Origin: Alphaproteobacteria bacterium
Lineage (GTDB): Bacteria > Pseudomonadota > Alphaproteobacteria > Micavibrionales > Micavibrionaceae
DNA length: 43,266 bases
Assembly (NCBI GenBank): GCA_030636745.1
Contig: DAOVWH010000001.1
Coordinates: 1 to 43,266 of the forward strand
Reading direction: 5' to 3'
Part shown: positions 39,054 to 43,266 of the stretch, piece after piece
Layout of the letters: each line of letters starts with the position of its first letter
Position numbering within the stretch: the stretch's first letter is position 1
The notes under the pieces: generated by a model
What the model was told of the DNA's origin: nothing
Databases searched by the model: none
The model's input: the letters and a program-made list of their open reading frames with translations, nothing else
Position numbers and translations under genes: made by a program

Positions 39054-40466
39054 CTATTTTTTCAGCTTTTTATAAAAAGTTGATTTAGCCATCCCTAGAG
39101 CTTTTGCTGCTTGGGTGACATTATGGTCAAAATAATCAAGAGCAATGCGCATTGCTTCTTTCTCTATCTCATCAATTGGCTTGAATTTACCATTATCTAA
39201 TACGACACGTATCTGACCAATATCGCCAAGCTCGTCTTGAAAGTATTTTTTAACACTATACTCTACCCCCTTGTTATCAAAGGATTCATCCTGAAAAAGA
39301 ACATCGTCAACACCCAATATGTTGTTTTCACTAACAACCATCGCCCTATTAATAACATTTTCCAGTTCACGCACATTTCCTGGCCAACTATACTCCATCA
39401 AAGAAGCTTCTAATACAGTGGACAGATCCTTGGGAACGCCGCCCTCCCGAATACAAAACCGCTCTACAAAATGAGAAGCTAATGGCAAAACATCACCTTT
39501 ACGCTGAGATAATGATGGCAGATTAATTGAAAGAACATTCAAACGAAAATATAAATCTTCACGAAAAGCCCCTTTCTTAACCTCCTTATATAAATTACGA
39601 TTCGTTGCAGATATAACTCTAATATTTACTGGCAAAGGCCTTCCGGCACCAACAGGCTCAACTTCTTTTTGTTGTAACACCCTCAACAATTTAACCTGCA
39701 TCTCCAGCGGCAATTCGCCAACTTCATCGAGAAAGATCACCCCGCCCTCAGCTTCACGGAACTTTCCAATCACTTTTTCCGTCGCGCCAGTAAAAGCGCC
39801 CTTCTCGTGACCAAAAAGTGTGCTTTCAACAAGCTGCGGCGGTATAGCACCGCAATTCACCGCAATAAAAGGATAATCAGCACGCACACTTTCCCCGTGG
39901 ATAGCACGCGCAAAAACCTCCTTCCCCGTTCCTGTGTCTCCACTAATCAAAACAGCAATGTCAGACCGAGCAGCTTTACGCCCCAAAGCCACAGGATCGC
40001 TCAACCCCGTGTCATGTCCAATCAAATTATCAAAATGCAGCGCCCCTTCTTGTTGGCGTTTAAGCCGCGCAACTTCCTTGGTAAGCGTACCAAGCTTAAG
40101 CGCATTTTTAACCGTTATCACCATGCGTTCCACTTCATAGGGCTTAACCAGAAAATCCATAGCTCCCAAGTGCATAGCCTTAACTACATCATCAATATCA
40201 CGACTACCAGTTAGCATAATTACAGGAAGAACTGGATATTTTTGACGAATAATTTCCAGAGCTTCCATTCCGCCCATAACCGGCATGCTAACATCTAAAA
40301 TAACAAGCTTTATGGACTGAACATTTTCATTCTCTTCCAGCTTCACCAATGCTTCACGCCCATTTCTTGCCTGAAGTGAGTTAAACCCCATACGTCGATG
40401 CAATAGCCTAGACAACATCTTACTTTGTGTTTCATCGTCTTCTACGATCAAAACCGGATACGTCAT
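39054..40466 (-). CDS. Sigma54-dependent response regulator (REC-AAA+-Fis HTH; NtrC/LuxO type)
   Basis: The REC domain shows VLIVEDDE…LVILDVSMP…LTG…KP. The AAA+ domain shows Walker A GDTGTGKE, an intact GAFTGA loop (HEKGAFTGA), Walker B GGVIFLDEVGEL and WPGNVRELEN. The C-terminal HTH reads NVTQAAKALGMAKSTFYKKLKK. Confidence 0.93.
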   Translation of the reverse strand: MTYPVLIVEDDETQSKMLSRLLHRRMGFNSLQARNGREALVKLEENENVQSIKLVILDVSMPVMGGMEALEIIRQKYPVLPVIMLTGSRDIDDVVKAMHLGAMDFLVKPYEVERMVITVKNALKLGTLTKEVARLKRQQEGALHFDNLIGHDTGLSDPVALGRKAARSDIAVLISGDTGTGKEVFARAIHGESVRADYPFIAVNCGAIPPQLVESTLFGHEKGAFTGATEKVIGKFREAEGGVIFLDEVGELPLEMQVKLLRVLQQKEVEPVGAGRPLPVNIRVISATNRNLYKEVKKGAFREDLYFRLNVLSINLPSLSQRKGDVLPLASHFVERFCIREGGVPKDLSTVLEASLMEYSWPGNVRELENVINRAMVVSENNILGVDDVLFQDESFDNKGVEYSVKKYFQDELGDIGQIRVVLDNGKFKPIDEIEKEAMRIALDYFDHNVTQAAKALGMAKSTFYKKLKK

Positions 40467-40606
40467 CTGTTTTCCTTTTCATTGTTCGTGGACATAATTT
40501 ACCACAACAAAACGCAAAAGAATTTAACCAATACGTGTGTATTCAAATCTCTTGTAGCCTATTTTTATACAAACATAATTACTCAAAAAAAACCGTCTAT
40601 TATAGA

Positions 40607-40625
40607 GAGAAAAACTGTTTTTCTC
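40607..40625. promoter_or_regulatory. Palindrome GAGAAAAA-CTG-TTTTTCTC, candidate upstream activator site
   Basis: The 8-3-8 inverted repeat is perfect. Its centre lies about 85 nt upstream of the -24 element, the usual distance for enhancer-binding-protein sites. It is A/T-rich, so chance cannot be excluded. Confidence 0.25.
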
Positions 40626-40659
40626 ATTTTCATACGTTCGATTATAAGAAAATCATTCC

Positions 40660-40683
40660 AATCAATTTAGTAACTAATTGATT
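40660..40683. promoter_or_regulatory. Inverted repeat AATCAATT-N8-AATTGATT containing an IHF-consensus match
   Basis: The minus strand of 40671-40683 reads AATCAATTAGTTA, which fits WATCAANNNNTTR. It lies directly upstream of the -24 element. Confidence 0.25.
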
Positions 40684-40699
40684 TATATGCAAAACTATT

Positions 40700-40715
40700 T
40701 GGCACAACTTTTGCG
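40700..40715 (+). promoter_or_regulatory. Sigma54 (-24/-12) promoter TGGCACaactTTTGCg
   Basis: TGGCAC lies at 40700-40705 and TTGC at 40711-40714. The spacing between the -24 GG and the -12 GC matches the TGGCAC-N5-TTGC consensus exactly. It is about 100 nt upstream of the ATG at 40818 and divergent from the sigma54 activator gene. Confidence 0.7.
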
Positions 40716-40817
40716 CTATTAAACAGATAAATATATAGATTTTTGGTTGAATTTTTTTATAATTGCTCTGGGGTAACAATCAAGGAGAATTACTTTTGGT
40801 TAGGGAAGGATTAGGTC

Positions 40818-41708
40818 ATGCAGATTATCTCACAAAGCAGCGAAAACCACTTGTTACAAGATTTAAGATCCCTTTGGCAAAACAACACACAATACAGGTG
40901 CTTGCAATTTAAATTTTCCCAAACTGAAAAATATAACGATGAATGGCCTGATTTAATATCAGCAGAATTAACATTGTTTTTCGAAGACGTGTTTTTGGAT
41001 GTATATGTCTGTAAAGATCACGATATTTTTATTATCAACCGGACGATGACACATAAACGTGTCGCACAATTTCTAACCCACCTAGGACCAAAACTTGGGC
41101 CAGCCCGTGACGAAATATCCGGGCTAGCCTCTCTTTATGAAATTGGTATAGATTGGGCAATACTGCGATCTATTTGCGAGAAAAAAATTGATACTATCAG
41201 ATTAGAAAGATACATAGCCAAACAAGGAAAAGAGAGTAAACACCACAAAGACGATATAAACACAGAAGAAAAATCACAAACAATTAAAGAAGCCAACGAA
41301 GAAATGGTTCTCTCCCTCCCTCGCCGACGCAAAAATCGTAAAGTAACAGAGATTTTAGTCGTCGAAGACGATCCACTATCTCAACGTCTTATAGGTAACG
41401 CTTTAAAAGATACACATAGCTACACAATTATAGGCGAAGGAAAAAAAGCATGTATGACATATCTTATAAAAGCACCAGATATATTGTTCCTTGATATTGG
41501 ATTACCCGACATCAGCGGCCATGAGGTTTTAAAGAGTATTTTTGAAATAGATCCAGAAGCCTATGTTGTAATGTTCAGCGGCAATGGAGATAAAGAAAAC
41601 GTTCTTAAAGCTATCGATGTCGGGGCAAAAGGTTTTTTAGGAAAGCCATTTACACTCGACAAACTAATGCAATACATTGAAAAATCACCACACATAAAAG
41701 GAAAATAG
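40818..41708 (+). CDS. Response-regulator-like protein: unrecognised N-terminal domain (about 165 aa) plus C-terminal receiver
   Basis: The REC domain shows EILVVEDDPLSQRL…ILFLDIGLPDISG…VVMFSG…GKPF, with the acidic pocket, phospho-acceptor Asp, Ser and Lys all present. The N-terminal domain has no motif I recognise. GGAAGGA lies upstream of the ATG. Confidence 0.85.
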   Translation: MQIISQSSENHLLQDLRSLWQNNTQYRCLQFKFSQTEKYNDEWPDLISAELTLFFEDVFLDVYVCKDHDIFIINRTMTHKRVAQFLTHLGPKLGPARDEISGLASLYEIGIDWAILRSICEKKIDTIRLERYIAKQGKESKHHKDDINTEEKSQTIKEANEEMVLSLPRRRKNRKVTEILVVEDDPLSQRLIGNALKDTHSYTIIGEGKKACMTYLIKAPDILFLDIGLPDISGHEVLKSIFEIDPEAYVVMFSGNGDKENVLKAIDVGAKGFLGKPFTLDKLMQYIEKSPHIKGK

Positions 41709-41797
41709 CATTAATGTATTCTACTTTTAATTCGGCCATTTACCGTATTAACTTAATAAACACAATAAAGTACTTACAAAACGTGTAGGAGTAAAAA

Positions 41798-42643
41798 ATG
41801 GACATTGTTACAACTGATGCAAACAGAGAATTGTTTGATTTAACATCATCCATCGCGCAAAATTCTCAAACCTGGCAAGGATGGTTTTGCCTCAAAATAG
41901 ACCTAACAACACGTAATGGCACATCATATGAGGAAGGTCTAAACTGGGTACGTTCCATCATAAAAACACACTTAAAAGACATACAAGGACATGCTTATTT
42001 TTGTGAAAACAATTCTGTTCATATCCTCTGCAAACCTCCTTCAGAAAAAATCCTAGAACAAACAGGTGAACAAATATGCGATATAATTGAATCTGAAACC
42101 AAAGAAAAATCCCTGTATACCCTTTATGATTTGTGTTCGCACGGTTTAGACTATGTGCAAGATATAATGGGAGCTACCGGAAATATTTTTTCTCTTCCCT
42201 CATCAACAACATCTCAAGAAACAGAAGAGCCCTCTTCACCACAACACCCCAAAACGCCTTGGGGGAAAACTTTATCATCATTACAAAATGCCCCTAAAGT
42301 CCTTCTTGTCGAAGACGATCCCATCACCCGCTGGATGGTACGTAATTCACTTAAAGATATATGTGACTTTGCCACAGCATCCACAGCCAGAAAAGCCTAT
42401 GCTATGTATACATCTTACCAACCAGATGTCGTTTTTCTAGATATCAACCTTCCTGATAAAGACGGTAGAATAGTGCTCAAATGGGTTATCGAACACGATC
42501 CCGGAGCTTGTGTTGTCATGTTTTCCAGCGAAGACTCACTAGAAAATATTACTGAATGCCTAAATAACGGAGCAAGCGGTTTCGTTACCAAACCTTTTTT
42601 AAGAGAGGATCTCATTCATTATGTCCGACCTCATACTGAGTAA
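41798..42643 (+). CDS. Paralogous response-regulator-like protein: unrecognised N-terminal domain plus C-terminal receiver
   Basis: The REC domain shows [14 protein letters not shown]…[13 protein letters not shown]…VVMFSS…TKPF. The N-terminal part shares landmarks with the upstream gene (W…CL-hydrophobic strand, …Y-x-C-x-polar4-hydrophobic4). Confidence 0.85.
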
Positions 42644-43266
42644 TCACATGCTCATAGATATTATCATGTATTTTGTTGTCAGCATGTACGTGTTTGGAAT
42701 GCTGGTTTGGTTCGCCTTCATAAAACCCCGAAAAATAACGCGCGAGTTACGACAAGCATTAAACGACGCTTTGCACGAGCTTGAGCAGATAATGCAACTC
42801 ACGAAGAATAATCCTAATTCCATCGTATGCATTAGCTTTGAAGGAGAAATTCTTTTTTCAAACCCTGCCGCAACAAACAAATTTCCAGATATTACAGAAA
42901 AGGGCTTTGACCACTCTGTGCTTCAAAATTTGGAAGGCCTGAAAAACAACGTCATAAACAGACCAGATGAAGAACATGTCTTAAACAGAGAAATTAATTG
43001 CGAAGGGGGATTTTATAACCAAAACATCTCATCCATTGATTATAACGGCAAAGAAGCATTGATAATTTACAGTTACGACACAACCGCACATAAAATCTCT
43101 GAAAAGAAGTTGCAAATTACAAAAGAAGCCGCAGAAGCTGCCAACCGCGCTAAAAGCGATTTTCTTGCCAATGTCTCCCATGAGCTACGCACACCCATGA
43201 ACGGCATTATCGGTTTATCACAACTGCTGATGGAGTCAACTCAAGAAGAGGAACAAAGAGAACTCT
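42621..43266 (+). CDS. Membrane sensor histidine kinase (5' part; runs off the window)
   Basis: Manual translation from the ATG at 42621 gives [38 protein letters not shown] (a TM helix). A PAS-like region follows ([21 protein letters not shown]…), then a coiled-coil and the HisKA H-box [23 protein letters not shown]. There is no stop before the window end. It overlaps the upstream gene by 23 nt. It is missing from the ORF track because it is open-ended. Confidence 0.85.

Follow-up and report, generated by a model that had tools for sequence, protein, structure and literature searches.

Positions 39054-43266 of the 43-kb stretch of alphaproteobacterial DNA analyzed in this study (hereafter the window) hold a compact signalling module. 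A gene for a sigma-54-dependent enhancer-binding protein (EBP) lies on the minus strand. It diverges from genes on the plus strand for two paralogous proteins, X-REC1 and X-REC2, each consisting of an unnamed N-terminal domain (X) fused to a receiver (REC) domain, and for a probable hybrid histidine kinase. A preliminary description of this DNA had seen here a sigma-54 activator divergent from a sigma-54 operon of two extra receivers and a phosphorelay-type kinase. All of these parts were found at the coordinates given below, and the layout recurs in about 45 loci. The locus would be best explained, with a probability of roughly 0.6, as a branched phosphorelay of several steps, the components of which are induced by the relay itself. 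The genes and features of the module are as follows.

39010-39040, plus strand: terminator-like hairpin with a 13-bp stem followed by a T run, found by a consensus scan; left boundary of the module
39054-40466, minus strand: EBP gene, 470 aa; REC domain, AAA+ sigma-54 interaction domain (GAFTGA) and Fis-type helix-turn-helix (HTH), assigned with Pfam
40599-40627, minus strand: candidate sigma-70-type promoter of the EBP gene, ATGAGA-17-TATAAT, 10 of 12 consensus matches
40621-40650, no strand assigned: putative upstream activator sequence, 30-bp dyad TTCTCATTTTCATACGTTCGATTATAAGAA, agreeing with the family consensus in 24 of its 28 specified positions
40671-40683, no strand assigned: IHF-like site TAACTAATTGATT, read from the sequence, between the dyad and the sigma-54 promoter
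40700-40715, plus strand: predicted sigma-54 -24/-12 promoter TGGCACAACTTTTGCG, exact TGGCAC-N5-TTGC, conserved in orthologues
40726-40817, plus strand: predicted leader of about 90 nt, 5' of X-REC1
40818-41708, plus strand: X-REC1, 296 aa; unnamed N-domain (about aa 1-108), long helical linker and canonical C-terminal REC domain
41798-42643, plus strand: X-REC2, 281 aa; divergent paralogue of X-REC1 with the same architecture
42621-43266, plus strand: 5' part (215 codons) of the probable hybrid histidine kinase gene, cut by the window end; transmembrane helix, PAS-like region, and the start of HisKA (E 1e-13) with the H-box

A homologue scan of species-representative genomes located the X-REC1 family at 422 encoding places, and 334 full-length X-REC1 homologues were obtained. 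The best 80 of the 422 places were all in metagenome-assembled genomes (MAGs), labelled nearly without exception as Alphaproteobacteria, Micavibrio, Rickettsiales or Rhodospirillales, and a few with other labels. We fetched and annotated 88 loci (denoted by L and a number), with flanks totalling about 1.4 Mb, by open reading frame (ORF) calling, BLAST and clustering. About 45 of the 88 loci showed the order EBP (minus), X-REC1 (plus), X-REC2 (plus), then an H-NOX gene, a globin gene or nothing, then the kinase (plus). These loci span 31-66% identity in X-REC1, and many are in MAGs labelled Micavibrio. EBP orthologues (51-66% identity) occupy the same divergent position in about 50 loci, and no other neighbouring gene is as tightly co-conserved with the operon as the EBP gene. 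The four-gene arrangement, for which a neighbourhood check had been proposed, thus recurs in related genomes, with the promoter, the dyad and the IHF-like site co-conserved together with the gene order. This comparison of sequences confirmed that the gene grouping is not a product of chance, and that it is a conserved, real signalling cluster of uncultured Micavibrio-like bacteria.

The product of the minus-strand gene matched Sigma54_activat (E 4e-68), Response_reg (7e-26), AAA_lid_14 and HTH_8 in Pfam. Its translation shows the GAFTGA loop, a Walker A motif (GDTGTGKE) and the acceptor Asp. The two kinds of evidence agree with the original assignment of an enhancer-binding response regulator with an intact GAFTGA loop. 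The protein is an EBP of the response-regulator class with the NtrC-type domain order. Its receiver domain retains the acidic pair, the phospho-acceptor Asp, the Ser/Thr and the Lys. The EBP and the kinase were tested for a known name by comparing their scores with the curated NCBIfam equivalog cut-offs. The best scores of the EBP, with the cut-offs in parentheses, were 376 bits (714) for AtoC, 368 (503) for the PEP-CTERM regulator (PEP_resp_reg), 365 (559) for NtrC and 350 (800) for LuxO; the scores for ZraR, GlrR, FlgR, FlbD and NtrX were lower than these. It reached none of these nine cut-offs.

The EBP and X-REC1 genes are separated by an intergenic region of 351 bp (40467-40817). In this region, TGGCACAACTTTTGC (40700-40714) is the sole exact match to TGGCAC-N5-TTGC in the window. 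When one mismatch was allowed, the window gave 4 matches against 3.4 expected; the lone exact match in one window is by itself not significant. We then compared 37 orthologous intergenic regions with shuffled-sequence controls. The -24/-12 element was present on the operon strand in 36 of the 37 regions, against 29 of 7400 shuffles (0.4%), and on the opposite strand in none of the 37. The sole exception, L024, has TTGT instead of TTGC. Positions T1, G2, G3, C4, A5, T13, G14 and C15 are invariant, and the five spacer bases are free to vary. A functional sigma-54 promoter would be expected to show just such an invariant core and variable spacer. It is this conservation across the orthologous regions that makes the predicted promoter significant, and the -24/-12 promoter suspected upstream of the operon was borne out by it. 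Both a GG-N10-GC core and a candidate upstream activator site, the marks of a sigma-54-dependent promoter, are present.

The candidate activator site belongs to a family of dyads with the consensus TTCTCA-N18-TGAGAA and a central AACGTT. In 33 of the 37 loci, 63-66 bp separate the centre of the dyad from the start of TGGCAC downstream of it; in the window, the distance is 64 bp. The mean match of the dyads was 22.8 of 28 positions against 15.1 in shuffles, a score that is partly circular, the consensus having been derived from the same sequences. The fixed spacing between the dyad and the promoter is evidence independent of this score. The dyad at 40621-40650 is presumed to be the binding site of the EBP. 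In many loci, the right half of the dyad recurs once more, in a weaker form, further upstream. A distal half-site in the window at about 40592-40608 agreed by eye with the family distal element at about 10 of 19 positions; it was judged too degenerate and was not listed. Between the dyad and the promoter, the reverse complement AATCAATTAGTTA of the IHF-like site fits the IHF consensus WATCAANNNNTTR, and the site is putative. Most related loci have a block containing ATTGA at this position, some 20-25 nt 5' of TGGCAC.

We also examined what lies 3' of the promoter. A search of positions 40400-40900 against Rfam at E<=1 gave no match, and hence no Qrr-like or other Rfam RNA. The predicted leader folds no better than shuffled sequences (z = +0.8), and the leader is only 25-65 nt long in most related loci. 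A small RNA (sRNA), a riboswitch or a leader RNA element was rejected on these grounds. Since there is no Rfam match and no unusual folding, and since the leaders of relatives are short, the promoter appears to drive a protein-coding operon and not an sRNA. A second site combining promoter and dyad was found neither in the window nor in any flank of the fetched loci. The leaders of the window (40780-40817), L004 (9960-10000) and L006 (9955-9999) share AAGGAGA and, about 13 nt further on and just 5' of the X-REC1 start codon, TTTTGGTTAGGGGAGG; these are two Shine-Dalgarno-like or GGA-rich blocks. Four loci (L018:7734-7964, L028:7673-7957, L038:7656-7889 and L041:7737-7967) have an additional gene that separates the sigma-54 promoter from X-REC1. 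Its product of about 76 aa has one transmembrane helix, a conserved C-terminal ECQNIPGGDxC and no Pfam match.

In each of the two X-REC proteins, the only Pfam domain is a C-terminal Response_reg (E 2e-21 each), located at aa 179-287 in X-REC1. The N-terminal residues, about 165 in each protein, gave nothing relevant in Pfam, even at E<=10. The full-length proteins are 25% identical by BLASTP (E 2e-29), and the N-domains alone aligned in hhalign with a probability of 98.6% (E 1.3e-15). The earlier suggestion of two paralogous proteins with an unknown domain and a REC domain was thereby established along the full length. Residue conservation was examined in 59 X-REC1 homologues and 43 X-REC2 orthologues. 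In the X-REC1 receiver, E183/D184/D185, D226, S254 and K276 are invariant or nearly so, and the equivalent residues of X-REC2 are conserved in its orthologues. Both receivers are, judged by these residues, canonical in their phospho-acceptor positions. The term "atypical receiver proteins" in the preliminary description was thus misplaced, because the acidic pair, the Asp, the Ser/Thr and the Lys are all retained; what is unusual is the domain order, with the unknown domain first and REC last. In all 43 loci in which both paralogues were aligned, the X-REC1 type came first and the X-REC2 type second. From this constant order, the duplication is old and both copies have been retained.

N-terminal to its REC domain, X-REC1 has the invariant residues R27, C28, S34, D69, E108 and K123. 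Two cysteines (C28 and C65 in X-REC1) are common to both paralogues. A C-[HK]-D-x-D hairpin is retained in X-REC1 and not in X-REC2, and the N-domain of X-REC2 keeps its own set of conserved residues, distinct from that of X-REC1. Among 1.84 billion representative proteins, a profile built from 29 N-domains gave 380 matches at E<=0.001, corresponding to about 380 clusters at 50% identity. In the best 150 of these 380 matches, the domain was always at or near the N-terminus, and nearly all of the proteins were 280-310 aa long. As judged from this position and length, X-REC is the sole architecture seen for the X domain among these best 150 matches. The same profile gave only chance-level matches to the sequences of the PDB, the best being MutL at E 0.1.

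The X domain was further analyzed on the basis of AlphaFold2 models. The mean pLDDT was 88.4 for the full X-REC1 protein, and 91.6, with a pTM of 0.84, for the N-domain alone. A Foldseek search with the full-length model returned receiver domains only, and the N-domain was therefore modelled alone. This model has a beta-alpha-beta-beta-alpha-beta core; a strand and a helix come before it, and a long helix after it leads on to the receiver. Against the PDB, Foldseek gave weak matches (E>=0.013, TM<=0.48), and the top matches were mostly GGDEF domains (LapD, DosP, DosC, PleD and DgcR). The identification of X as a GGDEF domain was rejected, since no Pfam GGDEF match was obtained at E<=10 and the motif position reads C-[HK]-D-x-D. 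The X domain is also about 50 residues shorter than a GGDEF domain, and the strand equivalent to that of the metal-binding Asp of GGDEF domains reads, by eye, L-K-F-S-Q. The models would thus be compatible with a palm-like fold with a weak resemblance to GGDEF, and this assignment is uncertain. Tentatively, and with more doubt than belief, we consider that X might be a new effector or sensor signalling domain, maybe a cysteine-bearing or nucleotide-binding palm-like one, which would act on the kinase, the EBP or a cellular target once the fused REC domain is phosphorylated. The X-REC pair might in that case be an unrecognised class of accessory regulators specific to the haem-gas phosphorelays, responding to nitric oxide (NO) or O2, of Micavibrio-like, possibly predatory, alphaproteobacteria.

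The N-terminal part of the kinase has exactly one transmembrane helix, and its H-box lies within the HisKA match. Its start overlaps the end of X-REC2 by 23 nt (42621-42643). This overlap with the preceding gene, pointed out earlier, was seen again here and is also kept in L004 (23 nt); in L006 it is 26 nt. The PAS and HisKA part of the LuxQ model aligned to the kinase with 88 bits against a cut-off of 1200. Contig L001, from the same organism, extends the kinase to 455 aa with an HATPase_c domain and then ends. The orthologous kinases on long contigs (66-68% identity) are 720-724 aa long and have the order HisKA-HATPase_c-REC-Hpt. The H-box had been described as one of the hybrid-phosphorelay type, and the REC and Hpt domains of these orthologues are in keeping with that description. 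In the lineage of the window and its closest relatives (L004, L006 and L008), the kinase is anchored by a transmembrane helix and has a PAS-like region, with no separate sensor gene.

Other members of the family carry such a gene. In 18 related loci, an H-NOX gene (180 aa; PF07700, E 2e-40) lies between X-REC2 and the kinase, and in about 8 further loci a truncated globin (PF01152, Bac_globin) lies in or beside the module. About half of the related loci have a gene for a haem gas sensor. Loci with neither haem sensor have longer kinases with extra sensor domains, for example a PilJ-like domain and PAS in L016. Since the sensor gene differs or is absent among the loci, the core of Hpt kinase, two X-RECs, EBP and promoter appears constant and the input exchangeable. 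NO or O2 is the probable input in much of the family. In L050 (9629-10117), L070 (3348-3734) and about six other loci, the truncated globin gene (Bac_globin, E 1e-18) takes the place of H-NOX in the operon or lies beside the EBP gene, which suggests that haem sensors have been exchanged while the signalling core stayed constant. Enzymes of cyclic di-GMP (c-di-GMP) metabolism are the usual targets of known H-NOX kinase systems. No ORF with a GG[DE]EF motif was found in the flanks of all fetched loci (about 1.4 Mb).

Two further arrangements of these genes were observed. In a sister clade (L045-L049, L053-L060, L063, L072, L077 and L079; for example L055:483-10925), a single X-REC gene lies between genes for two hybrid HisKA-HATPase-REC-Hpt kinases, and there is no sigma-54 activator. 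Genes for an ABC exporter, an HlyD-type protein (type I secretion-like) and a REC-HATPase_c_2 protein (RsbW/SypE-like) lie 5' of these kinases. In L007 (4684-8206), and at the same place in L032, the EBP gene has directly downstream of it genes for a periplasmic binding protein resembling LuxP and for a second hybrid kinase, which is PAS-HisKA-HATPase-REC without Hpt.

From the gene content and the control region, we infer the following course of events for the branched phosphorelay. The membrane-anchored hybrid kinase (transmembrane helix, PAS-like region, HisKA, HATPase, REC and Hpt) would sense a signal through its PAS-like region; in the sister lineages, the signal would come from the operon-encoded haem protein, H-NOX or truncated globin, and would probably be NO or O2. 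The kinase would relay phosphate from His to Asp and then to the His of its Hpt domain. The Hpt domain would pass the phosphate to the three receivers encoded alongside, namely those of the sigma-54 activator, X-REC1 and X-REC2; all three keep their phospho-acceptor residues, which supports such a relay. Once phosphorylated, the EBP would bind the 30-bp dyad, centred about 64 bp 5' of the -24 element, and, together with an IHF-type bend, would open the sigma-54 promoter to yield more X-REC1, X-REC2 and kinase. Since the dyad lies in the EBP gene's own upstream region, where its left arm overlaps the -35 hexamer of the candidate EBP promoter, the EBP bound there would probably also throttle its own promoter. 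The induced X-RECs would be accessory receivers, which might compete for phosphate or, by way of the X domain, affect a partner. Their action would provide a delayed feedback or a second, non-transcriptional output. The preliminary description had proposed a positive-feedback or phosphate-sink role for the two extra receivers, and such a role is presumptive.

Several facts weigh against this interpretation. The case for a phosphorelay is, for every member, one made from sequence. The window copy of the kinase is cut at residue 215, and its REC and Hpt domains are predicted from the orthologues with 66-68% identity. No rpoN, sought as an ORF with the RpoN box, was found in the window or in the 88 fetched flanks; an RpoN encoded in the genome is presumed, with indirect support from the conservation of the -24/-12 core. 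In the window, X-REC2 and the kinase overlap and no ORF lies between them, and there is thus no adjacent H-NOX to point to the signal of this lineage. The candidate sigma-70 promoter of the EBP gene is a bare consensus match, and such sites are not above the shuffle expectation in this region. In L007 and L032, the second kinase may be the real partner of the EBP, or a second input to the same activator.

This last point leads to the main rival interpretation, in which the locus is a cascade and not a loop. Another kinase, encoded elsewhere or, in some genomes, next to the EBP gene, would phosphorylate the EBP, which would turn on a separate pathway of the hybrid kinase and the two X-RECs. The binding protein and the second hybrid kinase directly downstream of the EBP gene in L007 and L032 are what would be expected of such a cascade, and the sister clade, in which X-REC is paired with hybrid kinases and no EBP, indicates that kinase and X-REC can work without the activator. 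We nevertheless regard a cascade as unlikely, since a further kinase within 8 kb is lacking in the majority of the loci (about 40), the EBP is tied to the operon more tightly than any other neighbour, and the kinase's own Hpt domain makes a one-to-many transfer easy. It is also worth considering that the X-RECs are the real output, X being a degenerate GGDEF-like or nucleotide-binding effector with a second-messenger or protein-protein output, and that the EBP loop only sets the levels of the components. Known H-NOX kinase networks act on c-di-GMP enzymes (PMC4436077), the best Foldseek matches of the confident N-domain model were mostly GGDEF domains, and the different conserved X-domain residues of the two paralogues argue for specific, distinct interactions. 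The Foldseek matches are weak in both E-value and TM-score, however, and neither Pfam at E<=10 nor the PDB sequences supported GGDEF. The shorter length of X, its L-K-F-S-Q strand in place of the metal-Asp strand and the lack of a GGDEF-motif ORF in 1.4 Mb of flanks likewise make an X-REC output of this kind rather improbable.

Another possible interpretation is that the locus is an ordinary named two-component system (NtrBC, AtoSC, LuxOU/LuxQ, FlrBC or DctBD) that looks odd only through truncation by the window. The best NCBIfam scores of the EBP were those for AtoC, the PEP-CTERM regulator, NtrC and LuxO, and the N-terminal part of the kinase aligned to the LuxQ model; all of these scores were far under their cut-offs. 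None of the five named systems has two X-REC genes, and no Qrr-like or other Rfam RNA follows the promoter. No published description of this module or of the four-gene arrangement was found in the literature searched, a negative that holds for that literature only. We consider a named system very improbable. The preliminary description had also held that no named arrangement fits, and the EBP scores below all equivalog cut-offs, the lack of a Qrr RNA and the receivers with an unnamed domain bear it out. Its wider claim of an undescribed regulatory system has to be divided. No named system fits, and that part of the claim stands; the ties to haem sensors place the family next to the H-NOX/kinase networks.

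Read as a self-activating branched phosphorelay, the module appears to have its nearest parallel in design in the Hno network (H-NOX/HnoK with HnoB, HnoC and HnoD) of Shewanella oneidensis and Vibrio cholerae, and would stand beside the H-NOX/kinase multi-regulator networks as a member of none of them. The H-NOX kinase of Shewanella acts on three cognate regulators, and the transcription factor among them feeds back on the network (PMC4436077). The likeness lies in one kinase with three receivers, one of them a transcription factor that controls the network's own genes, and the other two accessory or effector proteins, one with a degenerate enzyme-like domain (PMC4436077). An H-NOX gene adjoins the kinase in 18 related loci of the present family, and the window copy is without H-NOX. 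The two differ in that the present transcription factor is a sigma-54 AAA+ activator whereas that of Hno is a REC-HTH repressor, that the present accessory receivers carry an unnamed N-domain instead of EAL or HD-GYP, and that the present kinase, judged by its orthologues, has its own REC and Hpt domains.

Parts of the module also resemble three other systems. In Vibrio harveyi and V. parahaemolyticus, an H-NOX-type hybrid kinase acts through an Hpt step on a sigma-54 REC-AAA+-HTH activator (H-NOX/HqsK-LuxU-LuxO; PMC6759604). The present EBP differs from LuxO in its score (350 bits against the cut-off of 800), in its target, which is a protein-coding operon and not a Qrr sRNA, and in its binding dyad; the present Hpt is fused to the kinase, and there are two extra receivers. 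The qrr1 gene is divergent from luxO, and the present target promoter is likewise divergent from the EBP gene. In the Syp system of Vibrio fischeri, the REC/Hpt hybrid kinase SypF acts on the sigma-54 activator SypG and on an accessory receiver with non-DNA-binding domains, SypE, and the H-NOX-controlled kinase HahK also feeds in (PMC12369376). SypE is an RsbW-like kinase-REC-PP2C protein and not an X-REC, the Syp targets are polysaccharide genes, and homology to the present module was seen in shared generic domains only. The VieSAB operon of Vibrio cholerae encodes a hybrid kinase, a regulator and the auxiliary REC protein VieB, which is induced by the system and feeds back on the kinase. VieSAB is not known to have a sigma-54 component, the REC domain of VieB is N-terminal, and VieB has no known sequence relation to the X domain.

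The surroundings of the module were also inspected. The hairpin at 39010-39040 lies between the EBP gene and a convergent short-chain dehydrogenase (SDR) gene (38261-38980), and it is probably a terminator shared by the two genes. L004 and L006 likewise have the SDR gene close to the module, with unrelated small genes intervening. Further to the left, positions 35167-38112 encode a protein of 981 aa with a weak, partial match to phosphoenolpyruvate carboxylase (PF00311, E 5e-23), in which aa 83-588 align with positions 80-622 of the 919 in the profile. This sequence may represent a divergent member of that enzyme family.

A multi-receiver phosphorelay with a sigma-54 activator is a known design, and the locus adds no new principle to it; the new part is the family of unnamed domains fused to receivers, together with the present arrangement. 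The analysis gives a defined regulatory module for poorly known, uncultured alphaproteobacteria, many of them labelled Micavibrio, and its parts can now be listed: a promoter, an activator site, a kinase, three receivers and a sensor that can be exchanged. The few known H-NOX/kinase multi-regulator networks are joined by a version with a sigma-54 activator. The sensor appears to be exchanged among H-NOX, truncated globin and kinase-borne domains on a fixed core. The unnamed REC-fused domain family, with about 380 clusters at 50% identity, is a clean target for work on structure and function, and the spacing rule between the dyad and the -24/-12 element would offer a direct route to the prediction of the regulon in whole genomes.

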